A stretch of 64,000 nt of DNA from Schmidtea polychroa. Its lineage: Eukaryota. Made by a program: the position numbers and the translations under genes. Below are positions 7,639 through 64,000 of this stretch, piece by piece (positions within the stretch are counted from its first letter, which is position 1; every line of letters starts with the position of its first letter). The notes under the pieces were generated by a model that worked only from the letters and a program-made list of their open reading frames with translations, ran no database searches and was not told where the DNA came from. Location: contig CM097885.1 in NCBI GenBank assembly GCA_044892525.1, forward strand, positions 251,968,001 to 252,032,000, written 5' to 3'.

Positions 7639-9958
7639 GACCTATCCCCCGATTTACATGGTACTTGTTTTACACGTTTTCGCTTTTACACGGTTTTCCA
7701 AATAATTTTTTTTTGTTTTTATCGCACTCTACTAAATGCTACTGTGTTTGAACACGTGCGCTGTGTACACATCTCACAGGGAATCCCGAGCTTATGTGCT
7801 GACTTGCTGCACATGCACACTGTGTCTGTATTTCTTCGCATAAGATTAAAGTTTTAAAGTTTAAAGTGAGTGCATAATTTAGATTACATATTATAAATTA
7901 ACATAAATTTAAAAAAATTATAGGCTTATAATGTCGAAAGAAGTTAAAAGAAAAGTTATTTCTTTAGAAACTAAAATCGAAATTTTGGATCGCTTACGAA
8001 AGGGAGATAGAGTAGTAGATGTTGCAAAATCATATAGCATGAACGAAGCTATAATAAGGACTATTAGAACAAATGAAAACACAATTAGAAAGAGTGTTGC
8101 AGCTGGCAATACCACGAGTATGGGCACAACATCATACACCAGAAATATCGCAATGGAAAAATGGAGAAAGCGTTAATGCTTTGGATAGAAGATCAAACAC
8201 AAAAAAGAGTACCCATTGATACGGCCGCTATAACAAATAAAGCAGTACGAATTTAGGAAAAAATTGTAGAGCAATTACCATCTTCTTCAACTGAAAAGAA
8301 GCCAAATTTTTGGCAAGTCATGGCTGGTTTGAAAGATTTAAAATAAGACATTCTTTACACAGCTTAAATTTAAAAGGTGAACTGGCTTCTGGCGACGTAG
8401 ATGCAGCCCAAGAATATCTAGCAAATTTTGGAGAAATTATTAACGACAATTCATACACCCCTGATCAGGTTTTCAATGCTGATGAGTCAGGGTTATTCTG
8501 GAAAAAAATGCCTGAAAGGACTTATGTCTCAAAATTTTATAAATCGGCTAGTGGTCATAAAGCAGCAAAAGATCGCATAACAATTCTTTTCTGTAGCAAT
8601 GCTTCAGGAGATTATATTATGAAACCATTAGTGATTAACAAATCAAAAATGCCCGTGCCTTTAAAGGAGTAAACATCAAAAATCTTCCCGTTTATTGGAG
8701 GGCTAATAAGAAAGCGTGGGTTACTGCTGCAATGTTTACTGAATGGTTTCATGAATGTTTTATCCCAGATGCCAAAAAATATTTAGGTTCAAAGGGATTG
8801 CCTTTTAAAGTGCTTTTGTTAATTGACAATGCGCCGGGTCACCCACAAGATCTAGAATATGAGAACGTTGAAGTAAAATTTTTACCAAAAAATACAACTT
8901 CATTATTACAACCATTGGACCAAGGCATAATTTCTACTTTTAAAGCTTTGTACATAAAACGAGCCTTTACATATATTTTGGAACAAATGGAGAGAAATGA
9001 ATCTTTAACAGTTATTAGTGCTTGGAAAAATTTTACAATATTAGACTATGTGAAGCATATCGCCTTATCATACACTGCGATTAAGCAAACAACGCTCAAT
9101 AGCTGTTGGAAAAAATTGTGGCCAAATGTAGTCAAAAATGAACATTCCATTTCAACGTTAAATTATGAATATTCGCAGATAGTACAGATGACGCATTCAT
9201 TGGGCGGAGAAGGTTTTGATGATTTTACTGATGATGATATCGCAGAGTTAATGGCTGATAAAGAACTAAGTGAGGATGATTTAGTTAACTTAGTTTGCGA
9301 AAGTGAGTCTGAAAAATCTGATGAAGAGGAATTAGTACCAGTAACATTCACTGCTAAAGTCATCCGCGAAGGACTCGCATTGGGAAGAAAGCTGGGTAAT
9401 CATTTTATACAAAATGACACAAACGTAGAAAGGGCTTTACGATTCCAACGTGACATAAATCGCTGCTTGGCTCAATATGAAGAAGTTTACAAAGATCTTA
9501 CAAAAAATTCGAAGCAATTGTTAATAACCGATTTTATTACCACCTCTCAGAATGTAAATACTTCTGCTTCAAACATCGAATCGGCACAAATAACTTCGAG
9601 TGATGAAAATGAATTCCAACCTTCGATTCCGAAAAAAAGAATGAGAGTAATTTCTGATAGTGATGAAGGATAATAAAACACCATTGGTTTTATTTTTTGT
9701 TCTTCTGTTTAATGTATTGTAATTAAATAAAAAAACAGTGTTTCCGTAATATATTACATATTTAAACCTGTCAATGCATTTTATTTTTATTTCTGTGTAC
9801 ACCTAAAAATATTGAAAAAAATTACAACTGTTAAATAGCAAAATTATGCATTTTCTGCAAGCTTTTCGATTTACACGGTTTTGACTTGAAAATTTTTAAT
9901 TTTCGATTTACACGTTTTTCTCAGGAATGTATCTACCGTGTAAATCGGGGGATAGGTG
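7639..9958 (+). mobile_element. Full-length Tigger/pogo DNA transposon
   Basis: TIRs (g/c)acctatcccccgatttacaYggta at 7639 and ending at 9958, TA target duplication on both sides, internal transposase. Confidence 0.95.
7931..9673 (+). pseudogene. Tigger transposase (HTH_psq, CENP-B HTH, DDE_1), frameshifted
   Basis: Split over ORFs 7931-8176, 8310-8672 and 8732-9673; motifs ASHGWFERFK, FNADESGLFW, LLLIDNAPGH, LLQPLDQGII. Confidence 0.95.
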
Positions 9959-26591: not shown

Positions 26592-27176
26592 TTATTCCAT
26601 ATTTGAGATTTCCTCCTGTCGTTTCTTTGAGCGCTCAGCACGCGTGAGGCACTTGCGCTTTTGGGAAGTTGGCTGAACGGGAACAGTGGTGGCAGCTACC
26701 AAAGCTGTCAGTGCCGTCATTGCGTTAGATAGTTGAGTCGGTAGCACGCTGGTTCCCACTAAGATGACATCAGGTACAGGCGGAGGGACATTTCAAGGTC
26801 GTGATTGTGGCAGATCGCCGTAGAATGGGCACTGTTTTCGTCGACACGGTGATGGATTGGGAAAACGTTCGACTTGTCGATGATCGGGAACTCATTGATT
26901 CTACTTTTCTACTCCGCTTCCGAATAGATGTGGTGGAGGGCCTCTGACTGCGCCTTGATAGTGAGGCGCTGGCATCGATTCTCCTCGAGCAGACTATCTC
27001 GACAGTGCTCTAAACGCAAGATTTTCCTATTGGCCTCTTTCATGAGTAGTGAGGAGAACCACGTCCCTTCGAGCGTGTCGATACGCTTCTTCAGAACCCC
27101 GAGATGGTCGTTCAGCTTCCGGATAGTCGCATATGTCTTTGAAATATGTCTTTGGAAGATTCGGTTCAGGCGTATG
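26592..27176 (-). pseudogene. 'WFxP' coiled-coil protein, copy A (stop plus frameshift)
   Basis: KRIDTLEGTWFSSLLMKEANRKILRLEHCRDSLLEENRCQRLTIKAQSEALH ... NVFPIHH ... KRKCLTRAERSKK; homologous to 45048-45794; AG acceptor at 27177-27178. Confidence 0.85.
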
Positions 27177-29337: not shown

Positions 29338-32300
29338 ATGGAGGATATTCCACCCGTTAGACGTTTAACGCTTGGTAACGAATAAATACCATTTTAATGC
29401 ACTTTTATAATTATTGTAGGGTTAGCTTCCAAATTACATGTATTTAAAGCTTTTGATATGTTGCTTGAAAATCAAAGACATGTAATTAAATCTACTCCAA
29501 AATATAATTTTGAAGTCAGGGATTATTTAAAATCGATCTCTGTAAAATCTAAAGAAGTCGACGAAAGTGAAAAATCAATTGTCTCTAATATCGAACTAAA
29601 TAATGAAAATAAAAAAATTATTAAAAGACCCAAACAAAAACGATTGTTGATGTTAACTGACACGACAAATAATGGAAAAAACTGCTCCGTAAAATATTTT
29701 GTTTCGATCAATTCTGCTGTCAATTCTAAATCAAAATCCCAAAATCTTATTTCCTGGATGTCAAAGAGAAAATTTTCGGTAATATTTGTCTCAGAATATA
29801 GGTGAATTGCATATTAACATATTTATTAGTCGATAGATATTGTTGAAAATATTTCTATATGTGAATCGAAAAAAATCAAATTGGAATGGGAAGTCGAAAC
29901 GGAAATTGTGTTTACATATCCCGATATATTTTTTCAATCGACAAACTCATTATCAATCGACACAAAAAAGTTAACGTTCTACGTTCAAGCTCAAGGTATT
30001 ATTTTGAATTGTTTCTTTCATATGAATTCAGTATTTAAATTTAACCTTAAATTATTTATAAATTAATCTTAATAAATCCTAATAAATTTTAGGCTAAATA
30101 AGATTTTAATTGGTAATTAATGAATTTATTTATTGTTGAATGTCAAACAAAAGAGATAATATAGCAAAAATATGTTACTAAAAATAGAATTTTTATCTCA
30201 TTGGTCAATTTTATAATGTATGATTTTGGTATAATGATGAGGACATTTATAATTTTCTATTACACAAACATTTACACGAGTTTTCAATGACCAAACAACG
30301 TTCCTAAGCACGGATTAAGGTTTGACATAACACTATCTCGCCTACCGTAAATGCCAATCAAATGTAATATTAATAAAAAATATCCATATATTATAATTAG
30401 TAATTTTGTAGTTTATATTGATCGTGATTTGGCATTAAGTCGAGATACTGACTCTTGCTCGGTTCCCTTGTTGATCATTAATCGTCACAAAAGGACATAC
30501 ATACCAAAAACTCTCATATAAATGTTATTGTAATCCTTGATAATTTTACTCATCTGCTGTATTCTAACATAAGAAAATACTTCAATATTGTATTTCTCGA
30601 TAATCCGTTTATGCACATTACTAATTATATGACGAGGCATTTTGGTGACCTGGAGTTCCTAGCAGGGACATAAAACTCAAGTGTATTGAACTAATAGTAT
30701 TGGGGAGATTATCCAATTCCCTGATAGGATGCTCATGTAAGTTGTATTATCATTAATCGTCACAAACATACATAAAGATATACATACTAAAAACTCAAAT
30801 ATAACAGTCGATAATGGCAGTCGTAAAATATCATAGAAATCATGTTACTGGCCTACTGTATTCGTCTTTAATATAAAGGTGATATTTCACAAGTTTCTTA
30901 ACCTTTTAAGGTTGGTATACAAGGTGTCCATAAAGTCAGTGTGCAATTGAAATTACCTGTAGCTATATAACTATATGTGATAGATAGAATCTATGAAGCC
31001 AAAAGAAAGAAGAAATACGATTCTATAGTTCTCTGAAAACATTTCCCATTAATTATATCAGTTATCATATCTTGGAAGCCTTATAAACTGTCACATATAT
31101 TTTAATTGCACACAGTTTTAATTTAATTTTTTTTACCTATTAAGGCTTAATAATTAGGCAAAATGTTTAATAGGTGATAAAATATCTAAATCCGCTATGA
31201 ATGGTAATATGAATAATATGTAAGTGTTATATTAATTTATTGATTAATCAGTTTATTTTCATTGTTTTATTATAACACGATTATTAAAGATTTACGTTAT
31301 TCAAAATTTGAAAATATTGACAACATCTAGAAGTCAACAATTGTATGTTTTGTATTTATATATAATGCAAATTTAATATCCAATAATGTTTGTTACAAAT
31401 GTCTGAAATCCGCTTTACCAAAATTAACTTTCCCCACATTCAATTAGTATCTTATTTAAATAAATACCGTTTTTTCAATGCTATATTTTTAGTTTTCCTT
31501 AATAATGCCTTATTAATTTAATAATCAATTCAATAATTTAATAATCAATTTAATAATTTCTCAGTCAAACATTTTTAAAGTTTTCATATAAGACTGACTG
31601 TTAAGTTGTTTGTAACTGAAATTCTTTCTAATTTTGTAGCTAGAAACTATTAGTCCGGTGGATCACGAAAAATTGTAACGTGAGAAAATCCTACAGATAT
31701 AATAAGATATGTTAAAAGAGATTTTTAATCATTCACGGATAAAGCTTACATAGAAATTCATATAAATGTGACTGAGAATTGTTATACCATCCTTATTAAT
31801 TACAACTCTCAAATCTACTGGTTATGAAACTTGTCTCTTACTTCTTTCGATCCCAAAACTTTTCTTTTGTATGCATTCGAATAATGCTATCAACTAAAAA
31901 TATTAAATTAAGCTTTGGAATAAAATTTAATCTATTCTTTATTATAATAACGTGTTCAGGGTTAAATGAGATTGAATTGGGACTGAATGATGTGAAAACT
32001 GTCCATGTATACAAAGAACAAGCATTTATTAAATTTGTCATGAAAACATCAGTTCTCAGTGATTTAAAGCATTTATCAGATAGTATGAGAAATCAGTCAG
32101 GAAGGCCATTAAGATTGCCTTTAAAAAGAGGTGATAAGTTCTAATGAGAGTTTTTATTTGGTAACATTTCCAATTTCAGGGTTTAATGTGAAAGATATAA
32201 TGGTGATATTCACAAAGAGTTTGATTACCAACAATGATTTAACTGTGTTGAGAACAATTTTCGGTTTAGAGAAAGTTACTTTTAACAACAAAGAGGACGA

Positions 32301-35300
32301 GGGCAAAGACTTTTTGTTGAATCTATTTTACAGTGCACCAAAATACAAGGAATTTGTATGCAATAATCCATGTGTGACATGGGATTCTTTATCTAAATCC
32401 CAGGTTCATCCAGTGACGATTTCGTCAACTGTCGCACAAAATCTTTCACAAATTCACTCCGGTAAACTTCCAGCAACATCAAACAAACCTCCAAATACAG
32501 TCAATACATCCCCAAGCCCTTTTAATAAGTCTCATCATTTTAATAACTCGTCACCGATTAATAAGTTCCAAGCTAATGCCTCTTCATTACTGGTCAATAA
32601 ATCCATAATTCCAGGAAATGTATCCTCACTGCAACCCAAAGACAATACGTTATTGACGACGTCTAATTCTCCTTGTCTGCCTCTTAGTTCTTTATCACAT
32701 CCCAGTAATACATCTTCTTTCACCGCCAATACGTCTTCTCTACAATCGTGTACTTCATTCCCTGGTGGAATACCTTCAATTCCTGTTAATACATTTTCAC
32801 TAGCAGTTAATTCATCTTCTTTACCAAATAATAATTCCCAGAAAGGCGTTGTTCAATTGGTAGCTCCGATAATGAATCATATGCCAAATTTAGTGCTGCA
32901 TCCACAACAATCCGGTGTTTCTGTCAACAATTGTTCAAACCAAGTGATCAACACCGTTTTATGTTCTCCCACTTCTTTCATCACTAACTATGCTGTTATT
33001 GCAACATCTATGTCCAACAATAGATTAGATCCCTATCCCAATCTGTTTAATCGAATGATTAATGAGTCCACGGCAATCCGTCCATTAGCAGTACAAGTCA
33101 ATAATTTCCCAATGTCCGTTACTTCACAAAATAATGCTACATTATCTATGAATAACAATCAGAACAAAGGCTTGCAAATCAATGATTTCGGATCTCTATT
33201 CCAACGACAAAATCAAATGAATGGATTGAACAGTGGTTTGCCCCCGATACCAACACCAATACCGATTGGGAATCATAATTACAACAACAACAGCAACAAC
33301 AATAATAATCATCATGTCAGTAATGATAGCAACGATGAGTCGGTAAATAAGCCATTGGTATATATTCCCGGCAGGCACATAGGCAACGTGTTCAAATCTT
33401 TTAATTACTCGCCATCACCTGAACACAGTGTCCTTATGTTTGGATCTGACCTGGCCCACCTCAATTATGGAGAATATCTCAATGATAACATCATCAATTT
33501 CTATCTCAATTACATCAGATTCGAGAAAATCACACAAGAACAACGAGAACGGTCTCATTTGTTTAATGTCTTTTTCTATACGAAACTACAACGAAAAACC
33601 GGCATCAACGATACCCCAGAAACCCGGCATGCCGATGTAGCGAAATGGACGAAAAAGGTTGACATATTCGACAAGGATTTTATCGTAATCCCAATCAACG
33701 AAAACAATCACTGGTTCTTGGCGATAATATGCTTTCCTTGGATGGCTGGAATGATTAGCTATGATGAAATGTTCGGAACGCCCAATTGTCAGATTTCGGA
33801 AATTCCAGAAAACCATTCAGTATTCTCCAAGAAAACTCGAGTCGAACGATTGAGATTCTTGCAAACACAGAAAAAAATCGAGCCGAAACCGTGCATTTTG
33901 TTATTCGATTCTCTACAACATGTTACTCGCGCACCAAATGTTAAATTGATTAGAGAATATCTCAAAACCGAATGGGACGTCAAGCGTGCAGCGAAAGACG
34001 GTCCGTTAGTTTTTGACAAAAATACCATTCGAGGTTTCAATCCTCAAGTCCCTCAGCAAACCAACACAATCGACTGTGGAATTTATGTTCTCCATTATGT
34101 GGAAATGTTTTTTGAGGTAATTATTATTAATGACATTAAAATTCATAATATTATTATTCTAAAAATTATTGATTAGGGCACACCTCACTGTATAGAATCC
34201 CCCCGTAAGCTAGGCCAAATATATATAACACCCCATATGAATATTCACATTAAATTACACCAGGAAACAGTTTACAAAAAAATATTCGTATAAAAACAGA
34301 ATAATGATAATTTAATATTGAATTTAATAACTAATCAATTTTGATCTATAGTTGTAATGAAAATAAATGAAATCTTTATGAATGTATTTACATATATATA
34401 TATAATTTTTATTTATATTTATTGAATTAATATTGAATTTAATAATTAATCAATTTTTAATATTGCATGACTTCAATCCATAAATTATTAATAATATAAT
34501 AGCCGTCATTAATTTGTTTGTTTGTATTTGTGTCAGATCAAATCAAAACGAATGTTGTTGCACTGATTTTTCGTTGAAAATATTTGTCTCTCTCTTTTGT
34601 TGACATACGTTCCTGATCATCAATTTGTAATGTCCGAATTGATGAAATTCTATTGTTCTTTTGTTATAAAGTTTCGCTTTCTCTTCTAAGTTTTTGTGCA
34701 CTTCTTGCAATAGTCTGTCTCATCCTAAGTTTCGTCATTCCTTCTTTGAACTTGTCGCAAATGTTCAACTTCCAATTTATAATTATGCTCATCCTCAGTT
34801 TCAGTTCTCCTTTGGTTTTGTCTAGCTCCATTTCCTTGTCTTCTAACTTAACTTTAGTCCACAGTTTCATTAGAGCGTTTTTGTTGCTGTTGAATTCTTT
34901 TCTTTGCACGCTTACGTTCCGGACTGACTTTTTACCCATTCCTTTCGATTTATTTTTATTATCATTTTAACTTTTCCCGTCATCATTGACGGGGCATTAT
35001 ACTAGTTATTTAATAGTAAAAATTTTTTCACCTTTATCTCTACATTTTTTTGTTTACATTTGATCTGCTTGTTTTTTAACTTTTAATTATTTTCATTACG
35101 ACTTTTAATCAATAATTTCTATTTTCATAGAAAAGTATAGATTTTTTATCTATTATAGTAATGAAAATATGCCCCGAGTTACTAATCTTTATTAAAAATG
35201 TACAGCGCACAAAAAACCCGTGCTTTAGAGTTGTTATATCTCTAAATACATAATTCTCCATCTATGTATACGAATTAGTGATTAAGGAATTGAAATTAAT

Positions 35301-36949: not shown

Positions 36950-38550
36950 ACTTAGAGGAAAGTCGTTTTCTCCGTGATCGGATTATTGCCCACACGAAAA
37001 TTGCCAAAACTATCTGTGGGCAATTTTCTGTGGGCGTTGCACTTTCTCCACTATTTTACTTCTATCGTTGAATATACTTTTATTATTGTTCCATTCTTTA
37101 GATATCCGAAAACCAAATACTGCTTCTGATGGACTCTTTCCAGTTGTGCTTTGAATGGTAGCATTTAAAGTAAACTCAATTTCAGGTAACACTTCAACCC
37201 AATTTCTCTTAAGTTTATCTCTTAATGATGTACTGATAAAATCTCGTATTGTTCGAAATCGTCTTTAAATCAAACCATTAGTGTTATGTTGATAAGGGCT
37301 AGAAAATTGTAGCTGTATATTAAATTCTTAGCCAACTCTTTTATCAAATTAGACTCAAATGTTTTTCCACAATCAACATGAATAATTCTCGGTGGCCCGT
37401 ATTTTAATATCCAGAATTTAACAATAGTATCCACTGTAGTTTTTTCGCCCTGCTTTGCTACTGCTGTCAACGAAATGTATCGACTACACATATCTATAAT
37501 TCCCAAAATATATTTCTTTCCATGAATGTTTGCCTGCAAAGGTCCACAAAAATCTATCGATATAACCTCAAACGGTTCCGCCACTTGTGTTTTTACAATT
37601 AGTTCTTTTGTTTTTGTTGTCAATGTTTTTCGTTTCTGGCATATTTCACAACTTTGAATACATTGATTCGCGATTGTATTTAATTCCTCCATATCGTAAT
37701 TAACTTTTATATAATCGATTACCTTCTTGCATTCAGCGTGACACAACATTTTGTGCATCTCTTTGACAAATTCTATTCTATTTACTTTTGGAATCCAAAT
37801 TTTATTTTCTCTTGTTAAAATTAAATCTTCGTTGATTTTAAATCTTGTAGTCTCATTTTTATCAATTGCTTTTCTCATATGTTCTATCTCTTCATTACCT
37901 TTCTGCCATTGCATTCCATGTTTAATGGCTGTCATTGCCAGCAATCTGGTTTTTATTTCATCTGTCTTGGCATCTTCATGGATTTCCATACACTGTGTAC
38001 ATTTCCCACATTTATCTTTCGATAATGCGTCAGCGTTCGAATGGTCAATTCCTTTTCGATATTTAATATCCATATCTAAACTACTCAAGAAGTTTATCCA
38101 TGTCTGAAATTGTGCTGTTATAGGTTTTTTTGTTGTCATCATAAATGTTATAGCCTTGTGATCCGTTCTTAGCTGGAATCGCTTGCCGTAAAGATAGTGC
38201 TTAAAATGCTGTGCAAAGTAATAAATTGCTAAAAGTTCCTTTCTCGTGATACAGTATCCTATTTCAAGTTTATTCATCGTATGTGAACCATAGGCAATAA
38301 CACGTTCATTACCTAGATCATCAATTTGTGACAAAACAGCACCTATGGTGTCGAAACAAGCATCTGTATCCAAAATAAATTCTTTCTCGTAATGGGGATA
38401 TATTAGAACTGGTGTAGTTGATAGTGCTTTCTTCAATTCCTCAAAACTTTCTTGACATTCTTGTGACCAAACTAACTTATCTTTATTGTTTCCGCACATC
38501 GATTCTAATATTCTTGCGAATTTTGAATAATTTTTATAAATTTTCTGTAA
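36950..38550 (-). mobile_element. Ty3/gypsy pol fragment (RT connection, RNase H, integrase), 5'-truncated and frameshifted
   Basis: ORF 37270-38499: FILDTDACFDTIGAVLSQ, YCITRKELLAI, FQLRTDHKAI, HKMLCH..C..CQ zinc finger, ISIDFCGP; continues in ORF 37010-37192. Confidence 0.95.
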
Positions 38551-38559
38551 TAATTACAC

Positions 38560-42394: not shown

Positions 42395-42820
42395 CATAAA
42401 CGGGTGTCGTTGAAGACCTTTCTGGACCATGATTGCGACAAATCGACGCAGACGGGACATTTATTTCGTCGGCACGATGATGTATAGGAAAGACGTTTCC
42501 CTTTTTCAAGGATTGGCAACTCATTTATTCTGCTCTTCAATTCATCCTCTTAATAAATGCGGCGGACGGCCTCCGATTGGGCCTAGATAGCCAGGCGTTG
42601 ACATGTACCTTCTTCGAGCAAATTGTCACGGCAGTGCTGCAGACGCAAGATCTTCTTATTTGCTTCTTTCATGCGTGGTGGGGAGAACCACGTGCTTTCG
42701 AGTGCATCTATACGCTTCTTTAGAGCCCCAAGATTTTCATTCAATTGCCGGATGACAGCATTTTTATCGGCACACGAAAAACAAGGTTTTGGGCCAGCTG
42801 TCAAGGTTTGGCTCTGACAT
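42395..42820 (-). pseudogene. 'WFxP' protein, copy B (stop plus frameshift)
   Basis: PKPCFSCADKNAVIRQLNENLGALKKRIDALESTWFSPPRMKEANKKILRLQHCRDNLLEE ... NVFPIHH; pyrimidine-rich AG acceptor just upstream. Confidence 0.85.
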
Positions 42821-45047: not shown

Positions 45048-45794
45048 TTATTTTTCCCACTCCGTGTCTGCCAGCAATTTTTCCAGGTTGAAGAATTCGG
45101 AGGCGTTCTCCTCCCATGTTACCCCAGCGGCAGATATGATTCGCCCTGGTATTCCTGTCGTTAGATCGACCGTGGCAGGAACGTCGTTGACTTTACTCGC
45201 GAGATCCGTCGGTTGCGTAAGCTGTTTCGCGGTTATTCGTTCCCGCTGTTTCTTTTTGCGTTCGGCCCTTGATAATTGCCGACGCTTTGGCTTTGCGGTC
45301 GATGAATTGTTCGGGGCTGCCGCAGATGTAGAGGCGATGTTAGGCGGTACCTGACTATTTCCAAAAAAGACAACTTCAGGCTGTTCCGGCGAGAGTTGGG
45401 TTTCTACGCACGGCCGGCAAGACCTCTTCGAAGGGGGCGACGATTTGGCAGATGTATCATGGTGTGCCGGAAAGAGATTGTCGGCTTCATCGATGGGAAT
45501 TTTTACTATCTTCCCAGTGGCCGCTGCCTGTACATATACTTTATGCAGCGCCTCGGACTGCTCCTTTATTAAGCTTCTTTGGGCACGACTCTCGGAGATT
45601 AGAGCGTCCCGACAATGTTCACTTCGGTGTAACTTTTTCTGAGTCTCTTCCATCTGGGCGGGACTAAACCATGTCCCCTCTAACTCGTCTATTTTCTTTT
45701 TATACCGTCCAATCTGGGTCTGTAGGTCCTTGATTATTGCATTGTCTGAACAAGAAAAGCAGGGTCTGAGAACAGGTCTTGAATTTGGTAGCAT
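45048..45794 (-). CDS. 'WFxP' protein, intact copy C (248 aa): PCFSC motif, coiled coil, basic NLS-like segment
   Basis: Uninterrupted ATG ORF preceded by a CAG acceptor; homologous to four other copies in the window; no family recognised. Confidence 0.8.
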   Translation of the reverse strand: MLPNSRPVLRPCFSCSDNAIIKDLQTQIGRYKKKIDELEGTWFSPAQMEETQKKLHRSEHCRDALISESRAQRSLIKEQSEALHKVYVQAAATGKIVKIPIDEADNLFPAHHDTSAKSSPPSKRSCRPCVETQLSPEQPEVVFFGNSQVPPNIASTSAAAPNNSSTAKPKRRQLSRAERKKKQRERITAKQLTQPTDLASKVNDVPATVDLTTGIPGRIISAAGVTWEENASEFFNLEKLLADTEWEK

Positions 45795-47539
45795 ATCTGA
45801 TGACTATGAAGAAAGGATAGAACTAAATAAGATAAGCTAAATTTATAAAGTCATCATCCCGACACAACTATTCGTTAACTGTATTAGATATTTCTACAGA
45901 AAAGAAACGGGGTTGGTTAGCAAGAGGAATTTCCCTACGCCATCAATCTTTAGTCCCTCTGGGTTATTTACTTACAAGAAAACCAACCGGCAACATAAGA
46001 CTTTGCCTAACGAAGGTAATGCATTATTGTTGAAAAGGAAAATTACATGTTTATGAGAAATTATTGATAACGAAATTTTCCTTGAAAATGGTAAATAGTA
46101 TTGAAGAGCTCAAACTAAAATATATGACTACTTTACAAAAAGAAAATTATTCCATATGAAGATTTAATAGATAAATAGGTAAATCAATTTCAATTAATTA
46201 TTATTTGTAAATATTAAATTTTTAGAAATTCCAATAATGTGGACTTGAAACATCCAATCGCATGCTATCGACTATCTGTGGCTAGTGTTAAATCTATTGA
46301 TGGCTGATGATTTTATCTAATAGTCGAAACTACATATGACACACCAGGTAGAGTTTCTCACGGTAATCCTCCACTGGGAATTTACCTACTGCCGTCGAAT
46401 AACTGAAAAACTCTAATGAATGTGACACGTGGAAAATTATTTTCGTATGATTGCGCTTGATCATAATTGTGTTATCGCTGCTGGGCATCCACATACGGGT
46501 TTTGCTACTGGAACTCGTAATACGCGTATTGCGTGGGTGTGCGTGTATTCACTCCATGAAATTTTAATCCGATTAGCATTTTGGGTGGATTTTCAGATGC
46601 TACATCACACTATGTTGGATTGCTATCTATCATGAAAAAATTAAAATAAGAAATTCTCTCTCGCCACTATTGTTGGATATATTGCTTCGTGGAGGAATTA
46701 TTAAACTATTCAAGATATATTTACCGATCTCAACTCGTAGATATCGACCATTTCAGAAATTGAACAAATGAATTTCTATGCACTGGCTCTTATGCAGGTA
46801 TGTCGAAAATAGTTTTCCTTTTATGTAATCAAATAAAAGATTTTCTATAGATATTGTCTTGTTTTTCGATTGCATGTTGATGATAGTATGGTGTTCTGCT
46901 ACATGGCTATTCTACTGCCCGAGTAATTGTTCTAAACTGGATTCATTATTCAAACTGAGTGTAAGTGGAAATTTCGAGACGAGGAAATAATCTGCAGACA
47001 GATGATGATTGCTCTACTAACGAAATTAGAAGATCCAGACCTACGGTTGACTAAATTTTCATATTACGAGAATCATAGTTTGATGAATTATTGTGGATAT
47101 GAAGACTTTAGACTCGCTCAGTCACTGTGATTCGCTGCCACTACTTTTCCTATAAATTAGATTTATATCACTCCTTTCTGATTATTCTATATGCATTTTG
47201 AGTGACCTTCAGCGACGGACCCGTGAGGAAGCCCCCACATTACGGCCCGAATCAGCTGCGTGATTGAAACGTTCCACACCCACCGACTGAGCACCCGAAG
47301 GCCCCTCACACCATGGTATGGAACGTCTCAACTCCACGTTCCTCATGAGATTAAAATCATAAAATAATAACTCATAAAACCAATTATAAAAATTTAAAAT
47401 AACTCATTTATTACTAGTGATTACAATTAAGCAGCTAAATCATTTAATTAATTAAACTCATTATTATGGATCAAACGAAAAGAAAACTATAAAAATTTAA
47501 TTATTTCGCAAATATACATGATTATTATTATTAACCGTT

Positions 47540-53502: not shown

Positions 53503-54272
53503 TGTGTTGGGCCAAGCTTCGAGAGCGTTGGAAATCAGGTTAAGGATGAATAAGAAGGGATAAAATAAATTTCATGAAAATCGCGGAAAAATATAAAAAA
53601 CAACTAAATTAGATAACCATAAAAGAAATAAGAATATAAAGGGAATAAAAATAACTAATAAAATAATAAAATGTATAAGACGAAAAACAAGACGAAAAAG
53701 AAAAGTATCCAACACACATAATAACGGAAGGAAATAAAATAATAAAATCTAAGGAAAATAAACAAGAAATTAAGAAATAAAATAGAAATAAAATCATTTT
53801 CAAATAAATGTATAGGCTAATTAAAACAAAAAAATTATACTATAACCAAATAACAATAAATTCGCAGGAAAAACAGGAGAAAAATAATAAAAAATAGAAA
53901 AATAAATAAAGTAATAATAAAAATAAGAAAAGTCGTTAAAACCTAACATATTACATTAAAAACATAAAAATAATAATAAATAATAACATTGCACACAAGG
54001 CGTGTCCTGATTGGACGAGAAATAGTATAAAAGAAATGGAAAATATCTGTAGAGTACCATTTAACCGCTATACTCTACAGACTTAGAAACCTATTTTTGG
54101 ACATCACTACAACTTATTCAACAGTAACCTTTTGATAGACGACAAGTTAAAATCATTCGAAATCATTCAGATAGAGATCAGGATTTTAAAGGGACGAAAC
54201 CACTAAACTTAGAAAACAATTCGAATATTCTTAACGATATTTTCAACGCTCTCGAGGAAACTTTTGGTAAGT
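53503..54272 (+). promoter_or_regulatory. LTR-like promoter block pointing right, bracketed by inverted repeats, ending in a splice donor
   Basis: TGTGTTGGGC start; IR TCGAGAGCGTTG 53519-53530 / CAACGCTCTCGA 54244-54255; CTGATTGG 54007-54014; TATAAAA 54026-54032; G|GTAAGT 54267. Confidence 0.65.
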
Positions 54273-55629
54273 GGTATGAATGAAAATTGTATGATAATTT
54301 TAGATATAATAATGAACAATAAAAACATTTTATTTTAATAAAATTTATACTTTCAAAGATGCATTCTTTCTTTATGATGGCTGGCGACGATGTCGTCTAG
54401 GAATAGGATGTGATGCGGCGAATTTGAATGAATCTGAAGAGAATGTCTGGGAACGAATAGCAGGAAAGGAGGAACTTGAATCGAGGTTTGAAATGAAATG
54501 AATATCACGCGAGCTGATTTTTTAATGCATAACGAGCATCACCATGCGGCATCATATCCGAAACGTAGACGGCGTGGTCGCCAGGTAATTAATTTTCCAT
54601 TCCGTAGATATGATTTTATAAGATTGATTCATTCATGAACCTATTTGATTATATTCCTTTTTGTAATTATTTATGATTCACTTGTGGAATAATAATTGGG
54701 AAGATAGAATCGTCCTTCCTGACGGTCCAAGAGTGGTGGCAGCAATGTATGCCGTTCTTGGGTGGGTCAGGAGGGGTGAGGACATCTAGTGAGTGGCAGA
54801 AAGCAGTTGTAGGGACAAGTCTTTTCATCGAGTGCGATCCGTGGTTATCGTTATCGTAAATATTTCCATCAGAACGAATTACAGTCAGGAAATTTAATGT
54901 AGAGGACAAATCCATGGAGAATTTTAGCAAAATTGCGGAACTACTAAGTATAGACACTATATCCAATTGTCTTTTCTCAAATCTCGATTGAATACGAACT
55001 ACGGCTTGTACTTGCCGACTAATAGTGTCGAAATATCCAAACAGCAGAGACCTGTATTCACGCGATATTGACGATAGAATTTCATAGGAAAATTGTGAAA
55101 CGGTAGTCTTCTAAGGTTTGAATCGCCAGGACATTGGCGACGAAACCCATCTACGATGTACTTTTAGGCTGAATTTTCCACTCTTGTATTGCTGATAAGC
55201 CTTGATTCTCTGAAAATAAAGTAAACAAATCCTGAGGAATTATCGGAATACTTACGGCCGATATGAAGGAAATCGCTGTCAATGTTATCGGCTAATTGCT
55301 GAACGAATTTCAGTTAGATTTTGAGTAACCGAGTTAGATGACGAACAAAAATCTAATAGGAGAGATAACGTGATAATTTCCGACATGATCTGTATAGTGG
55401 GCGTAGTGATAAATATCGCCTTGAGTCAACAACACGATAGAGGACGGATTAACAGTCCCAATTTACTCGTAATTCTCTACATCTGTCACATACTGTCTGC
55501 GGCGATTACTCATGGAAACTCTAGTAGAAAATTCTAAGGGACTACCTCTCGAGAATGCATACAGTTAGACACACAATAGCGAAATTTCTCCTGGTAGGAT
55601 GATAGTAAATCCGAACAGTAAATTGTGTT

Positions 55630-56987
55630 ATGTCATCAGAAGCGAAATTAGCGAGAAATAGAGTGCTAACAGCATATCGCAGATTGTTGAATGATATAAA
55701 TGTCGAGGACGACATTTTAAACGACAGCGGGGGAGATAAAGACGACGATAATGATGAAGATAAAGACGACGATAATGATGAAAAAGGGCGAAACGAGGAT
55801 AAAGAGAAAAAGAAACCAGAAGGGAATAATCAAGAAAACGACTCAAGTATGAAAAAGGAGGAAAATAACCCGGGAAACCGAACAAAGGAAGAGGAAAAGA
55901 CGAATAATGAAAAACAGAGGGTATGCCTACTTTTCACCAACAAGGAAATGGAGACAAATATGATGATAATGATACTTGTACTAACAATGGTGGAAATGAT
56001 AACAGCCCAGGGAGGAATGAGAACGATAAAAGAAGCCAAAGAAACGAAAAATGAAGACAATAAGGAGGAAGAACTAAACCAGGAAAAGAAAAAACGAATA
56101 CAGGATCAACAATGGGATCTTCAGGAAGAATGGGATCTAAAGGAAAAGTGTATAATAGGGAAATGTATGTCTAGAGCTTATAAGAGACTAGTGCTAATAA
56201 ACGAAGATACGGAACCAATAACGGAAGTGGGAATACAAGAAGCGTACCAACATCGAGACGGAAAGAAAATAACAAAAGTTAAATGGAAGGAGGTACACCT
56301 GGGTAAAGGAGGCGAGATAGTGATAACACAACTTCAGCCGAGAAAGGAGTACAAAGTTTGTATTTCAAGGTTAGGACCAGGAGAAGACTGGTTTACAATA
56401 TGTAACACAGAAACAACCCCCAAAGGAATATACGGTCTGTATCTTGAGAAACGGTCCAGAGAGAGAATGTCGACGATATCCTGGGAAAAGAGGCAAGAAA
56501 AGGAAAATCATTGATGAAAAAGATGAGGAAGAAAGCGCAAGAAAACCAGCGAGAAATATCAGGACAACTATGTGTCAGAGGAAGAGATGGAAAAAATACA
56601 AAAAATGGCAAGAGAAGGCATGAACGAGGAGATAGCGAGAATACGAGGAATGATAAAGGGAAATGGCAAAGGCGGTAATCCGAAAAGTACAGAGAGGATA
56701 TCAACAATAACAAACAAGGAAAAATCAGAAATTATAAGCGTGAAACAGATGATGTGGATAAGTGGAATAATAATAGCAGGGGCATTTTTAATCATAACGG
56801 GGGAACAATAAAAATAATCAAAGATAGATGGCATCGCGGAGAACTGGAGATGGTCAGAATGAGAAATTTTCAACATCGAGTAAAACGACCAAGTAATATC
56901 AAGCAGGAACAGTGGGTGGAGGCCTGGAATGCTCAGCGCCCTCCAAACTCACACATAGAAAGGATTATGACTGTATATAAATTGTAA
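55630..56987 (+). pseudogene. Acidic N-terminal segment followed by a type I membrane protein (signal peptide from ATG 55948, FN3-like domain, TM, cytoplasmic tail), frameshifted
   Basis: MMIMILVLTMVEMITAQG; EIVITQLQPRKEYKVCISRLGPGE...TETTP; TM MMWISGIIIAGAFLIITG; tail in ORF 56754-56987. Confidence 0.6.
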
Positions 56988-57111
56988 AAAGTAAGTATGT
57001 AATATTTATTTATATAACAGTATTCTATATCTCTATATAAGCGCGGTATCAATATTATATGATGACGGGGATAAATAACATAAAAATAAAATTAGATAAG
57101 GGTTGAAAAGT

Positions 57112-57486: not shown

Positions 57487-57574
57487 ATATAACCTAAAAC
57501 AAAATGTAAATAACTGTAAATAGAAATACGAGATTGTACCAGTAACGAATATATGTATATATATAATTATAGAA

Positions 57575-58960
57575 ATGGACAAGCGACTAAGAGAAGAGTT
57601 CAAAGAGATTGTCGAACAAGTCAGAAAATCCACCACAATTCGAATACATGACCATGTGAAGTGTGGAATATGCAAGGGATTATTAAAGGAACCTCACCAA
57701 ACCAGATGTGGATGTAGAATGTGCAAGGAATGTGTAGAGGAGATAATAAAGAAGGGACCACAATGGTGCCCGGTATGTAAAGAAACCATGATAACCAGTT
57801 TGGGAGATACAAACGAGGACAAAGCAGCAGTAAAAGATATGTTGAATGCAAATTTAGGATGTAAAAACACCCCATGTAATTGGCGAAGATTGATATGGGA
57901 AGTCAAGCAACATATAGAAGGATGTGCGTATAAAATCAGTCAATGCAAGCGCTGCCAGGAAGTGATAAAAGCCAATGAAGAAGCAGAACATCAAAGTCGA
58001 TGCGAAGAAAGGCTGGAGAAATGTGAATATTGCGGAGAAACCGATACCCGAAGAAAACTAACTAGTCAACATCATAACTTACAAGAGGAGAAAGTGTGCG
58101 CAGAATTCAGAGGAGAATGTCCCAACAAATGCGATAAATCCGGAGTAATAAAACTCGCTCAACATCTGAGAATGTGAAAGGATAAAGATAACGTGTGTGT
58201 TAGGAAAATGGGGATGTCAGAAACAATTACACCGAGGAGAATTACCCCAACATCTAGCAGAAAACGTATCAACACACGCGGAAATGTGGTCAACGGTATT
58301 ACAAGAAAACGAAAGGAAAACCGAAAACTTAGAAAAGAAATAATCTCGCTAAAAGCGTTGGTAAAGGAGTTATATCAAGAAAAAGAAGCATTTGAAGAGG
58401 CGAGAACAAGTACAAAGATACAGACCGACTTAGTAGAAACTAGCAATAATATGGTGAAGGAACTACACCAAAAGGTAAGCGAAATGAACCTCAACGAATT
58501 ATTACCAACGGCTCCCTACATATGGAAAATAACGGGAGTAAAGGAAAAAATGCAGAAAGCGAGAAACGGAAAGGATACAACATTACTAAGTCCAGCATTC
58601 TATTCATGGAAAAACGGGTATAAAATGAAAATGAAAGCATATCCCAACGGGGATGGAAGCGCATACGGAAAACATTTCTCAGTATTCTTCTTGATGTGCA
58701 AAGGGCTATACGACGAGTTAATAGAATGGCCATTCAAAGCAAAAATAGACCTCGCAATGATGAATCATCAAAGTATACATGAACAGAGTTTTCATACAGC
58801 AGGAAACCTCGTATGTTATCAAAGGCCATTGAAAGAAGAAGGACCAGCATCCGGAGCACCGAATTTCATCTTATAGCGAAAAGTAGAGGATATGACGAAG
58901 AACGACACCATATACATAAAGATAACGGTGAGGCGAGATGGGAAGAGCAGAACAAAATAA
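57575..58960 (+). pseudogene. TRAF: Intronless TRAF (RING, TRAF zinc fingers, coiled coil, MATH) with two compensating frameshifts and one nonsense codon
   Basis: RING CGICKGLLKEPHQTRCGCRMCKEC..CPVC; shifted frame about 58167-58335 ECERIKITCVLGKWGCQKQLHRGELPQHL; MATH YIWKI..SPAFYS..GYKM.M.AYPNGDG..GKHFSVFF....YD.LIEWPF; after TAG 58874 the frame continues KNDTIYIKITV. Confidence 0.93.
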
Positions 58961-59181: not shown

Positions 59182-60210
59182 ATGGCACAAGAAACCCCAA
59201 ACCACGAGATAAGAATCAATAAAGTACACAGAGAAAGATGGGCCAAAGTGATGGCACAACTAGCAAATCAAACACGAAACTATCTCGAAGAAGCAAGAGA
59301 ATGGAAGAACCACCAATTCCAGTGGCTGGTGCAGAATTTAAGAGCGGAGGCAGAGGCCTGTAAAAGAGCCGCCAAGTGGTCGGCACTAGAAAGTACGCGA
59401 CAGGAGGCACATGGCCACTACCTGAAACAACTGGTACAGGAGTCAAGGAAAAGGTTAACTGATGAGAATAAGAAACGGGAAATAGAAAAACAAAAGGAGG
59501 AAAGGAAAACCCGTCAACTATTGGCAGAAGCCAGAAAGTGGAAAAGGCAACATCGAGAAATTAAAAAGGAAATGAAAGAACTACCTCAGAGGCTAGAATA
59601 CGAAAGTGAGCAAGGAAAGTGGGAAGAAAACCTAGATCAGAGAGAAGAGCTGAGAAGGCTCAGAAAAATCGCCGCCCGTAGTCAAACCTGGCAGACCAAG
59701 GCCATGGAATTCGAAAGGCACTTGGCCATGAAAATATCCATAAAGGAACAGGAAAATACTGCCATGGAAGAAATGATCCTGCAACAATCAGGAAGAATCG
59801 TAGAACTCGTGAACAAGGTAGCAGACCTAGAACGAGACAACAACGGCTATAAAGGGGCACTAGAGCAAAGGAACATAGCGCTAGGCGGAAAGAACAAAAA
59901 ATTGGAAAATGAAAGGAAAATGTATCATGAAAACATCAAGAACTTGGAAAAGGAGATAAAAAAATGGGAAAACGGCGAAAAGGCCGAAGAGTTAGAAAAA
60001 CAGATAGAAGTAAGAGATGATGAAACCAGGTATCTGACATACCTGTTGGACGAGGAACTTAACGTTTCAAGAGCATTGAGAGACGAAGTTCAGGAGCTTA
60101 GAGCTCAGATTCCTCGATACTATATCCCATTCGATCCCATCGCACTCCATCTACAAGCATCAGTAGAAAGCGATGAAGGATATGTTGGCCAGGAAGAAAC
60201 CTTTGTGTAA
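59182..60210 (+). CDS. Hypothetical coiled-coil protein (342 aa), intact
   Basis: Uninterrupted ATG ORF, E/K/R/Q-rich heptads, Trp-punctuated; no family recognised. Confidence 0.75.
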   Translation: MAQETPNHEIRINKVHRERWAKVMAQLANQTRNYLEEAREWKNHQFQWLVQNLRAEAEACKRAAKWSALESTRQEAHGHYLKQLVQESRKRLTDENKKREIEKQKEERKTRQLLAEARKWKRQHREIKKEMKELPQRLEYESEQGKWEENLDQREELRRLRKIAARSQTWQTKAMEFERHLAMKISIKEQENTAMEEMILQQSGRIVELVNKVADLERDNNGYKGALEQRNIALGGKNKKLENERKMYHENIKNLEKEIKKWENGEKAEELEKQIEVRDDETRYLTYLLDEELNVSRALRDEVQELRAQIPRYYIPFDPIALHLQASVESDEGYVGQEETFV

Positions 60211-60382: not shown

Positions 60383-61084
60383 ATGAACACTGAAAACGGA
60401 CAACCCATCATAACATCTATAATCGAGCTGAAAGAGGGAGAAATTGAAGTAGAAGAAGTGGAGAGGAAGAAAACTATTAAGGAAGAATTACAAGAGGAGA
60501 GACAAGAAAACGAAAGATTAGTAGAAAGATGGAGAGATAATCGAAAAATGATTAAAGTATTGAAAAAAGAATATACCTTGTTAGAAGAAGTAAAGAAAGA
60601 AGTAGAGGAAGAAAACGAATGGCTTCACGAACAAAGAAAGCGTGGGAGAAATTGGGAAAAGATCGCGGGAAAATTATGGCAGGAAAGGGCCAGTAGAAAG
60701 GCAGATGAAGTGATTAGCGATTATTGGAAAACCGAGGCACGAAAACACCAAGAAAGCCTGAAAGAGTTACAACTCCAACTACACCAAAAACAAAAGGAAT
60801 GTGAGATAATGAGAAGAATGAAAAACAAATACCAAGAAATAGACGACGGAGAAGATGAGGAAAGAGAAAATGACTTTCTACAAATAATGAACCATAAAAA
60901 CCTAGAAAGGGCAACACAAGAAATAAAAGTGTTAAAAGGAAAAATAACAATCCTAAAACAACAGGTAGACGAAAGAGACAAACAACTAGAAGTACTACCC
61001 GAATTGAGAAAACGAGTAATAAAAGCAGAAACTGAAGTGATGAGAGCATCTGAGAAAGCCCGTAAAAAGAAAACCCGGCAATAA
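60383..61084 (+). CDS. Hypothetical coiled-coil protein (233 aa), intact
   Basis: Uninterrupted ATG ORF, E/K-rich heptads. Confidence 0.75.
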   Translation: MNTENGQPIITSIIELKEGEIEVEEVERKKTIKEELQEERQENERLVERWRDNRKMIKVLKKEYTLLEEVKKEVEEENEWLHEQRKRGRNWEKIAGKLWQERASRKADEVISDYWKTEARKHQESLKELQLQLHQKQKECEIMRRMKNKYQEIDDGEDEERENDFLQIMNHKNLERATQEIKVLKGKITILKQQVDERDKQLEVLPELRKRVIKAETEVMRASEKARKKKTRQ

Positions 61085-61137: not shown

Positions 61138-62260
61138 ATGTGGCCCGGAGCAACCCTGGTAACAATAATGATGATAGCAATAAACGGAATACCCATGTGG
61201 CAGTCAATCCCAACACGTTGGAAGATTCCCGAAAAACAAATAATGAAACTCCGACTAATAGTGGAGAACGAGCTCGAAGATTTAATTCCTTCTCATTCAC
61301 AATATCTGTTGCAAAGTATAAAGCAATGGAAAATGAATTTAAAGCATTATTCAACGATAAATCCTTCACCAGATTCGTTGCCGGTCAAGAGGAGCAAGGT
61401 GACGGTGGATTCCGTCATTTGCAGATGTATTGTGAGGTATTATTTATTTTATTCGATTATGATTAATTAATGGAATAAAATTTATAATTCAGATTTACAA
61501 CAATATGTCTATTTATGCCTTTAGGGCAAAAACGTTTATACCATTTGTTCGAGGAATTGCCGGGACTGAGAGAGCGGCCGCAATCGCATATGCGACTAAA
61601 CTCGATTCTAGAGTCGCTGGAGGAATGAGCATTAAATTTGGACAGCCAAGTAAATATAATAGTTCGAATACTATAGATTATTTCAAAAAAGCGTTGAATT
61701 CTTCCTCTATGAAAGAAGGTCTCGAAATATTAATGCAGAATGAAGCTTTTCATTATACCACCAAGAGGAAGACAATAATAGAAACTTTCGTTAATAAATT
61801 TGGTCTTGCAACTATGCCTAATTTTGGCGATAATTTTTTAATTGATAAATTTAATGTATATGATTGGAAAAGTCACATTTTTGTTGGCGATAGTGGAATA
61901 GGAAAAACTAATTTTGCACTTGCTCATTTTAATAAACCAGTTCACTGTAAACATCTACAAATGCTCAATCGAATTACGGATGATATTTCTCATTGCGATG
62001 GAGTGGTATTCGATGACCTTTACTTTAATAAATGTCGAGTAGAAGAATTTCTCGCTTTAATAGATTGTGCGTACGAGAACGTTATCAACATCAAATATTC
62101 TGTAGCTGTCCTACCAAAGGGATTACCACGCATTTTCTGTATAAACGATATCGATCTTTTTTACCCAGAATGTGTAACATCTACAATAATGGAGGCAATT
62201 AAAAGACGAATAAAAATACATCATTTCAGAGGAAGAATTTTTATTTATTTTATTTATTAA
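61138..62260 (+). CDS. rep: CRESS-DNA-virus-type Rep (HUH endonuclease plus SF3 helicase), split by a probable intron of about 60 nt
   Basis: Motif I FTIS (61296), motif II RHLQMY (61416), motif III YATK (61589), Walker A GDSGIGKT (61886-61909), Walker B VVFDD (62003-62017), motif C IFCIN, Arg finger AIKRR; AT-rich GT..AG segment 61432-61493 restores the frame. Confidence 0.9.
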
Positions 62261-62532
62261 TATATGTTTTACAGACAATGATACATCCCTATCTGACAAC
62301 GAGCCAGTCGTCCAGCCAAAATGCCGATTTGTCTCCCTCGAATGCAGAAGCTGCAACAAATTAATGCGATTGTATATTGGTGTTTGTAACAATAGTTTTT
62401 AGTTTCATTACCTAATAAATGCATATTAGTGTTTTTTGAAAATAGTTTTTAGTTTAAATAGTCAATAAAAGTTAGAAGAAATTTTTTATTTTATCAAATA
62501 TATCGTATTTGACATCGTTTAATACATTTATA

Positions 62533-63141
62533 TCAGAAAAAAACATCTAAATTAACTTTAAATTCATAAGGTTTTTGAACTACAATATATAAAGACCTAT
62601 TTTTCAAAGCTTGTTCATGTTCAGATGCATATTTCCAAATTGGATGATTGTTGGATATAATACATGGACAATTTGTTAATTCAATTTTAGAATCTCCTTT
62701 ACGTGAAACTTTAAGAAATATATTCCCTTCGCACATTAATTTAAGCAAATTGACATTTTTAAAATCACAATAGATTTCTTCTCCAATAATAATTTCTTTG
62801 CCAACACAATCATCAAAACAGAATTCACTTTGAGTTTGAGCACCGGTGAAAAATCCATGTTTTAATGTTCCATGACATATTGCAGTAAATAAAGTTTTTC
62901 CTCCATTACTAGCACCTTCTAGAATAATTGTCTTTGTCTTTCCGGCCTGAGAAGATAGTATTGTATAGATCCCAATAAGCCGACGAATATACTTTTCATT
63001 TTCTTTAGGAACAATTTTACTATTATGAGAAAGAATTCGATTAATTTGTCTATTGTGATCATCGTTAAAATAGAAATTATTGTTATTAATAAAACTCTCC
63101 ATAAAAGTTGATAATTCATTGTATAACAACAACTTGTTCAT
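62533..63141 (-). CDS. Stand-alone SF3 helicase, parvovirus NS1 / papillomavirus E1-like, without a nuclease domain (202 aa)
   Basis: KTKTIILEGASNGGKT (Walker A 62893-62916), SEFCFDDCVGKEIIIGEE, LKLMCEG..LKVSRKG, PCIISNN parallel the parvoviral KRNTIWLxGPxxTGKT / NFPFNDC...WEE / AKAILGG.V.VDxK / PVIVTSN series. Confidence 0.88.
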   Translation of the reverse strand: MNKLLLYNELSTFMESFINNNNFYFNDDHNRQINRILSHNSKIVPKENEKYIRRLIGIYTILSSQAGKTKTIILEGASNGGKTLFTAICHGTLKHGFFTGAQTQSEFCFDDCVGKEIIIGEEIYCDFKNVNLLKLMCEGNIFLKVSRKGDSKIELTNCPCIISNNHPIWKYASEHEQALKNRSLYIVVQKPYEFKVNLDVFF

Positions 63142-63194
63142 GATTAATGAAATGACTCATCGATGTTTTGTACTTTTATTCAAAAATATATAGT

Positions 63195-63350
63195 AAAGTA
63201 AAGGCAATTTACTGTGCCTTCGTTACAAAGGTAATTTACTGTACTTCCCTATATATTTTTGAAAACTCCCACGCAGTCTTTTGTGTGCGGTGTGCTCCTT
63301 ATAGACTTGGGAAATGGGGGGTATGGGGGCCCTGTAGCCCTGTAGGCCCC
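63195..63350. promoter_or_regulatory. Candidate replication origin / bidirectional control region
   Basis: Hairpin AAGGCA-ATTTACTG-TGCCTT 63201-63220, an imperfect copy with the same loop 27 nt downstream, and a GC stem GGGGGCC...GGCCCCC near 63325-63350, between divergent genes. Confidence 0.45.
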
Positions 63351-63400
63351 CTAAACAAATTAAAAAACGAAAGAAAGCCATACAACAACATCCAGGAACA

Positions 63401-63715
63401 ATGTTGGAACAAGCCGTATGGCAAAAGATTCAAATGCAACTCAGCCTGCAAACCCAAAGAATTGAACAACTCGAAACTCTCCTACAAGAACAAACCACTC
63501 AACAATCACTGTAGGAAACCATCGTGAAGAAGGAAGCAAAAGAAAGTCAAGTCTTACTCTATACTGCAGTCAGTGAAACCCTTATCATCTGCGCGCTAGT
63601 CGTCTGGAAAGCGTATGACATCTATCGAACATGGGAAAGAAACCAGCCACTATCCTGTATGCGGGACAGACGTAATAAACTTCGAGTCGTAAGAGTGTCA
63701 CTGACAATACCGTAA
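63401..63715 (+). pseudogene. Small coiled-coil plus TM protein with one in-frame TAG
   Basis: MLEQAVWQKIQMQLSLQTQRIEQLETLLQEQTTQQSL*ETIVKKEAKESQVLLYTAVSETLIICALVVWKAY... reads in a single frame. Confidence 0.5.
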
Positions 63716-63751
63716 TGTTTGCAGTGTGAGTATAAATGTCTTAACTTTTAG

Positions 63752-64000
63752 ATGACTACCCCAACCAAGTCCGGAAGCACTCTTCGTCCTTGCTTTTCCT
63801 GTGCCGATAAAAATGCGGGGAATTATATCGGGGAATTAAAAAAGAGGATCGACCTCTACGAAGGAACGTGGTTCTCCCCGCCACAAATGAAAGAAGAGAG
63901 CAGTAAAATCTTGCGATTAGAACATTGTCGCGACAGCCTCCTGGAGGAGAGCCGCTGTCAGAGACTGACAATAAAGGCCCAGTCGGAAGCCCTCCACAAG
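63752..64000 (+). pseudogene. 'WFxP' protein, copy E (in-frame stop, truncated by the window end)
   Basis: TTTTAG|ATG; MTTPTKSGSTLRPCFSCADKNAGNYIGN*KKRIDLYEGTWFSPPQMKEESSKILRLEHCRDSLLEESRCQRLTIKAQSEALHK. Confidence 0.85.

Follow-up and report, generated by a model that had tools for sequence, protein, structure and literature searches.

Schmidtea mediterranea harbours giant LTR elements of gypsy-like type, named Burro or GYPSM1 (Jurka 2007; Grohme 2018; via PMC6431247). As outlined in section 7 of PMC6431247, apoptosis and ubiquitin domains abound in their cargo, which includes MATH_TRAF_C, BIR, BCL2-like and ankyrin domains. In that account MATH_TRAF_C is placed within Burro ORF1 only, and a Burro-like element of Dugesia tigrina carries it on an accessory ORF outside the polyprotein, upstream of ORF1 and with MATH alone being named. 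The presence of MATH/TRAF-C in Burro is thus already published (PMC6431247), and the gene described here is a fuller version of that cargo, a whole RING-zinc finger-coiled coil-MATH protein encoded by a separate 3' ORF, full length and downstream of pol. A whole RING-bearing TRAF, a 3' position and an IAP neighbour were not found in the literature on Burro that we consulted and may be in Grohme 2018; the main text of PMC13524379 contains no mention of Smed, TRAF, Burro, BIR or planarian. The planarian TRAF expansion has been put at 99–121 MATH transcripts or domains (PMC6109357, the supplement of which holds no PF00917 or MATH entry).

The window analysed here is a 64,000-nucleotide stretch of the Schmidtea polychroa genome. 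We interpret its TRAF gene, with a probability of roughly 0.8, as a decayed copy of a Burro-like cargo gene that is under selection and likely acts in host TRAF signalling.

The window copy and its carrier element

The TRAF accessory gene occupies 57575..58960 of the + strand, from an ATG at 57575 to a terminal stop at 58958–58960, and encodes a C4C4 RING, zinc fingers, a coiled coil and a MATH domain. Pfam scans matched the RING at 57662–57778 (PF00097, E 2e-5), zf-TRAF weakly within 58170–58340, and MATH with two profiles (PF21355, E 1e-22; PF22486, E 2e-22). A sequence-only reading of this DNA had described one intronless TRAF unit; the RING, zf-TRAF and MATH domains bear this out, but translation in three frames reveals that the unit is broken. 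The reading frame shifts near 58170 and reverts near 58335, which puts the final zinc finger and the beginning of the coiled coil in a different frame, and an in-frame stop lies at 58874–58876. An alternative genetic code as the explanation for these breaks was rejected because the standard code leaves the frames of other copies open. The window TRAF is a pseudogene. Its DNA is 90–93% identical to 32 uninterrupted copies, and a piecewise comparison with these found 11 nonsynonymous and 5 synonymous codon states private to it, a ratio that, with few changes behind it, would fit decay after insertion. The coding strand is purine-rich, as had been noticed, which is borne out by GC and AT skew and by a purine share of 64–66% in element TRAFs versus 51–57% in six host TRAFs. 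A splice-acceptor-like TAG (57570..57572, +) lies 2 nt ahead of the start codon, and an AG 1–2 nt upstream of the ATG is found in 48 of 49 element TRAFs from three lineages.

The surrounding element copy is a relic shaped by deletion and rearrangement, into which an unrelated Rep/helicase element inserted at a later time. The relic extends from 53505 to past 64000 (~11.5 kb, flanks agreeing in 3 of 4 bases) and consists of a left LTR part, the final 8 kb of internal sequence and a right LTR part. The left part of the Burro-like LTR (53505..55638, right limit approximate, +) starts with TGTTGG at the same terminus as in three full-length copies and is 69–84% identical to the LTRs of other copies. 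It is followed by a C-terminal polyprotein tail remnant (55639..56990, +), identified by tblastn of the pol tail and 89–90% identical in DNA to the pol 3' end of full-length copies. Gag, env, PR, RT, RH, IN and ankyrins are absent from this copy, and there is no close RT or IN match within the window. Downstream of the TRAF are a charged, coiled-coil-like second accessory ORF without a Pfam family (59182..60210, +; 92% identical to the ORF of a full-length copy, 32% to its counterpart in the Burro1-type lineage, and with weak, uninformative matches only in an atlas search), a coiled-coil-like third ORF (60383..61084, +; 93% identical to that of a full-length copy), and a fourth (61138..63655, +) that is split by the helicase insertion into pieces at 61138–61238 and 63346–63655. 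The right LTR part (63743..64000, +) contains a WFxP ORF starting at 63752 and runs on to CCAACA at G000:C1:252033029, ~1 kb beyond the window. A linkage of the TRAF with WFxP genes had been suggested; a WFxP ORF does stand beside the TRAF, but it belongs to the Burro LTR itself.

Homologues of this LTR-encoded ORF occur in the window at 26801–27124, 42511–42789 and 45048–45803, all on the - strand; these additional WFxP ORFs likely mark LTRs of related families that are solo or have decayed. Other features of the window include a Tigger-like DDE transposase (8295–9673), a host SENP/Ulp1 protease exon (32125–34176) and an unrelated gypsy pol fragment (37270–38553).

Three copies were followed over their whole length (G000:C3:15806679–15836934, C1:12642003–12670574 and C1:45843837–45874978). 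They measure 30.3, 28.6 and 31.1 kb, with LTRs of 4.0–4.2 kb that are 99.4–99.9% identical within pairs and run from TGTTGG to CCAACA, and they are flanked by 4-bp target duplications. The genes follow one another as gag with CCHC knuckles, an env-like Monjiviricetes-type fusion protein, PR, RT, RH, IN, ankyrins, the TRAF and three more accessory ORFs, with the WFxP ORF lying within the LTR. This organisation resembles the S. mediterranea Burro in its ~30 kb length, long LTRs, gag knuckles, a mononegavirus-like env that separates gag from pol, PR-RT-RH-IN order, ankyrins, and TRAF-C/MATH and apoptosis cargo, a likeness judged by the description in PMC6431247 and not by sequence identity to the published Burro1–4. 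We therefore regard it as almost certain that the carrier is a Burro-like giant Ty3/gypsy LTR retroelement, and not the Rep/helicase element implied by the sequence-only reading. We file it as Burro-like rather than under Burro1–4 because no BIR domain was found in 13 stretches of the window's lineage. Pfam profiles gave no Bcl-2 match in the polyprotein pieces scanned. A primer-binding-site-like sequence directly inside the 5' LTR (L034:4223–4250) resembles a tRNA-Pro site.

In these elements the TRAF is a fixed 3' accessory gene, the first behind pol. We distinguish subfamily A, the window's type, subfamily B, ~70% identical to A, and a third element TRAF, C. Among 17 further A places, sampled mostly at even spacing down the best-150 MATH list, the pol tail precedes the TRAF in all 17, RT and/or IN is present in 15 and gag is nearby in two, so that the description of the gene as element cargo is upheld. 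RT is present in 12 of 12 B copies; two of three intermediate copies have the pol tail only and one lacks it. No polyprotein MATH was found in the A copies read. Two copies (L148, L149) have lost env, RT and IN, with gag near the ankyrins and the TRAF frame open, and are possible non-autonomous derivatives.

TRAFs of the window's lineage (A and B) occupy at least 270 genomic places, at least 218 of which hold a full-length open frame (A 90, B 128). The A count comes from the best 150 scored of 1463 candidates for the MATH piece of the window, which gave at least 120 places at ≥87% identity to the window MATH, window included, 90 with a stop-free frame of ≥461 aa and 30 broken; the B query gave at least 150 places. 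With so many places, and a position behind pol in the sampled copies, the gene is not a single-copy syntenic host TRAF. Some copies are paired ~26 kb apart (G000:C1:72666305 and 72692698; C2:107328203 and 107354615; C4:46257183 and 46283364), as expected for tandem elements with one common LTR.

Sister lineage, host TRAFs and probable capture

A sister, Burro1-type lineage carries the C-type TRAF, which is 31% identical to A and likewise sits behind pol, with an RT 92% identical to that of A. Its 4,791-aa polyprotein, near in size to the 4,873-aa Burro1 ORF1, contains an internal MATH, which was seen in both C elements read upstream, and a 3' C-type TRAF follows in six of six elements entered from the polyprotein. 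The matches listed include at least 80 3' TRAFs and at least 150 polyprotein MATHs of this lineage. The ORF directly after the C-type TRAF encodes a BIR+RING IAP in the copy scanned (L165:8016–9191; G000:C1:96656415–96657590) and starts alike in all six Burro1-type elements; a homologue search with this IAP returned 2 matches only. Since no BIR was found in the window's lineage, the TRAF-IAP pairing is direct for the sister lineage only. Short ORFs after the 5' LTR (L039:2116–2685, L034:4623–5135) end in an IAP-type RING; this A/B ORF is 27% identical to the C-terminus of the sister-lineage IAP and is possibly a remnant without the BIR. The 3' TRAF in both lineages, combined with two homologous downstream ORFs, suggests that a full TRAF at this position likely predates the split of the two Burro lineages.

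Host TRAFs were examined among the best 150 scored of 1551 candidates in a Pfam search, with flanks read for 20; by footprint these comprise 80 C-type, 13 in frames of 2,400–4,800 aa, one B and 56 host-type. Six of the eight top host-type loci are single uninterrupted frames of 454–476 aa in DNA of 26–33% GC, none of the six behind Burro pol, and the closest host TRAFs are single coding frames themselves. Lack of introns, by which the gene had been set apart from host genes, is therefore not distinctive. The replacement of CGH by CGC in the RING is real but not specific to the element, as it occurs in six of six aligned single-frame host TRAFs, in three Dendrocoelum TRAFs, in two of three tandem-cluster host TRAFs (CSC in the third), and in 15 of the 95 RING-bearing sequences among 150 relatives. 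Because both traits recur among planarian host TRAFs, neither can serve as an element-specific mark or a sign of retro-processing, and the proposal that the gene was retro-processed is unsupported. Large tandem clusters of host TRAFs at G000:C2 ~105–125 Mb and 1–5 Mb form one clade and are likely a real host expansion.

The element TRAFs share domain architecture and CGC RING with the planarian host TRAFs of this genome and Dendrocoelum TRAF-2, -4 and -5, and differ from host TRAFs in their element-like base composition, changed peptide groove and hundreds of near-identical copies. Sequence identity to host TRAFs is 26–32%, and a word-index homologue search returned 14 distant TRAFs only (24–30%). 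In full-length trees that also hold fish, mollusc, cnidarian, sponge and crinoid TRAFs, the element TRAFs form one clade (97/94*) nested in a 100/99* clade with TRAFs of this genome and Dendrocoelum, which supports the earlier proposal of a captured gene and points to the planarian TRAF family as its source. An AU test on placing the host donor gave p 0.40. MATH-only trees recovered the element clade with unstarred support (92/93 and 92/85, 15 of 16 other host rows being absent from the first), and the polyprotein MATH joins the element TRAFs there with weaker support. Long branches and the odd base composition of element TRAFs may help their clade to form.

Selection, predicted function and rival readings

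Nei-Gojobori estimates indicate that the element TRAF is under purifying selection. Between A and B, dN is 0.17 and dS 2.2, near saturation, giving an omega of 0.08, with values of 0.09–0.13 by domain. The corresponding dS of RT (1.5), IN (1.75) and ankyrins falls between 1.5 and 2.0, so the TRAF has diverged in step with pol. Omega within 32 A copies is 0.11, and shared variants have a lower value than singletons (0.13 vs 0.25, p 1e-4); 11 B copies showed no such difference (p 0.44). Selection of this kind shows that the TRAF is in use and is silent on which use.

We consider a role in signalling probable, with the element TRAF predicted to adjust cell-death or immune signalling of the host. 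The gene would stem from a single ancient capture of a host TRAF that preceded the split of the two Burro lineages. It would be expressed from spliced subgenomic RNA, and its product would form a trimer and work as an adaptor, or as an E3, whose peptide groove is altered. Contigs of one run, RNA by guess, cover every one of 30 bins along 10 kb of element sequence that contains the TRAF, and those of two further guessed-RNA runs 16 and 9 of 30, hardly touching the TRAF; all come without strand or level and speak neither for nor against expression. The predicted structure (pLDDT 91.7, pTM 0.52) best matches TRAF2/3, and the element TRAF resembles vertebrate TRAF2 and TRAF3 in architecture and in this predicted MATH fold. 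Residues of the MATH groove have known roles in peptide binding. Those kept in host TRAFs (a serine stretch and NIASG) are altered in all element TRAFs aligned, and host receptor binding may therefore be lost. The protein would enter host TRAF-TAK1-JNK/p38 signalling, components of which are listed for planarians in PMC7958881, and would keep element-producing cells alive or dampen their defence. A pro-survival role appears most likely because the IAP neighbour recalls mammalian TRAF2-cIAP, in which cIAP BIR1 binds TRAF2 coiled coils (PMC6262405); the two genes lie side by side in the Burro1-type lineage, and the window's lineage differs in having no BIR. A complex prediction for three copies of the Burro1-type TRAF coiled coil with the BIRs of the neighbouring IAP, folded without alignments, gave no informative answer (score 0.00).

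The altered groove also makes a decoy the main rival to the pro-survival role. Such a protein would have the same origin and the opposite action, joining host trimers and blocking signalling, which accords with the heterotrimers that TRAFs form (PMC6262405) and with a C-type RING that looks degenerate. The RING and zinc fingers are, however, as conserved between A and B as MATH (omega 0.13 and 0.09). In an active RING, hydrophobic residues usually face the E2 and the last Cys is followed by a basic residue; the A/B RING retains both features, as a pure decoy need not, and we hold the decoy to be a possible but clearly less favoured account. That the TRAF is instead a neutral hitchhiker of a successful element might be argued from the many broken copies, the window's and a quarter of the A places (30 of 120) included, yet omega of 0.08–0.11 over a dS of ~2, and a position kept alike in two lineages although their TRAFs share just 31% identity, make this very improbable.

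Two further alternatives concern origin rather than function. Cargo of the adjacent Rep/SF3-helicase DNA element would explain why helicase genes lie 2.3–4.2 kb downstream of the TRAF in the window, and is the least credible of the readings considered. The block is an independent 2.1-kb insertion (61239..63345) with a Rep-like HUH piece and a P-loop helicase on the + strand and a Parvo_NS1-type SF3 helicase on the - strand (PF01057, E 5e-14; Viral_Rep, E 0.07), and it represents a repeat family in its own right, other members of which have identical ends (133 and 50 matches). The cargo reading is refuted by the empty, uninterrupted site in L041:3114–3120; in addition, neither helicase was found in 77 other stretches, the TRAF cassette was matched by none of 22 Rep/helicase loci, and every other A place (119 of 119) is more than 30 kb away from the 38 Rep/SF3 places drawn from the top matches, contrary to the linkage anticipated by the sequence-only reading. 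The other alternative, that domesticated element TRAFs seeded the host TRAF expansion, draws on the excess of element copies over host loci among the matches listed and on a tree grouping A/B TRAFs with 12 tandem-cluster host TRAFs, which survives an AU test (p 0.086; L102, only 30% filled in the MATH tree, left out). Against it, those 12 TRAFs form their own 100/99* clade apart from the element clade in the MATH tree, in three of four cluster loci the RING and the MATH domain occupy different frames, as two exons would, and no host gene was found nested among element TRAFs. An element origin of the tandem host TRAFs is thus not favoured by these comparisons, and we rate it as improbable; the earlier suggestion that mobility may explain part of the host expansion holds for inflated copy counts but gains no such support for the seeding of host genes.

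With capture from the planarian TRAF family and carriage by Burro-like elements as the preferred reading, what had been a domain label in Burro becomes a testable gene, a whole TRAF selected across two deep lineages, one of which has an IAP next to it. The number of TRAF copies in this genome is inflated by elements: element TRAF/MATH loci (at least 270, 80 and 150 for the A/B TRAFs, C-type TRAFs and polyprotein MATHs) exceed the ~56 host-type loci among the matches listed, and TRAF-expansion counts, RNAi and qPCR should therefore separate element from host sequences. More speculatively, and we hold this to be doubtful, Burro elements might carry a self-contained, anciently captured TRAF-IAP ubiquitin kit with spliced accessory RNAs and hundreds of intact copies, more than there are host TRAF genes, that would set survival as well as immune thresholds of stem cells and account for part of the planarian TRAFs that have been counted and knocked down.

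The Rep/helicase insertion

The insertion at 61239–63345 has a possible short GT-AG intron ahead of its P-loop part and terminates on the right in a GC hairpin. The genome holds dozens of relatives, some in tandem at C3:28.09–28.16 Mb; at least one other copy (L054/L064) lies inside a WFxP-type LTR, and five loci adjoin gypsy pol. We take it to recall the planarian extrachromosomal virus-like element (cited in PMC6186406) reportedly described by Rebrikov in 2002.
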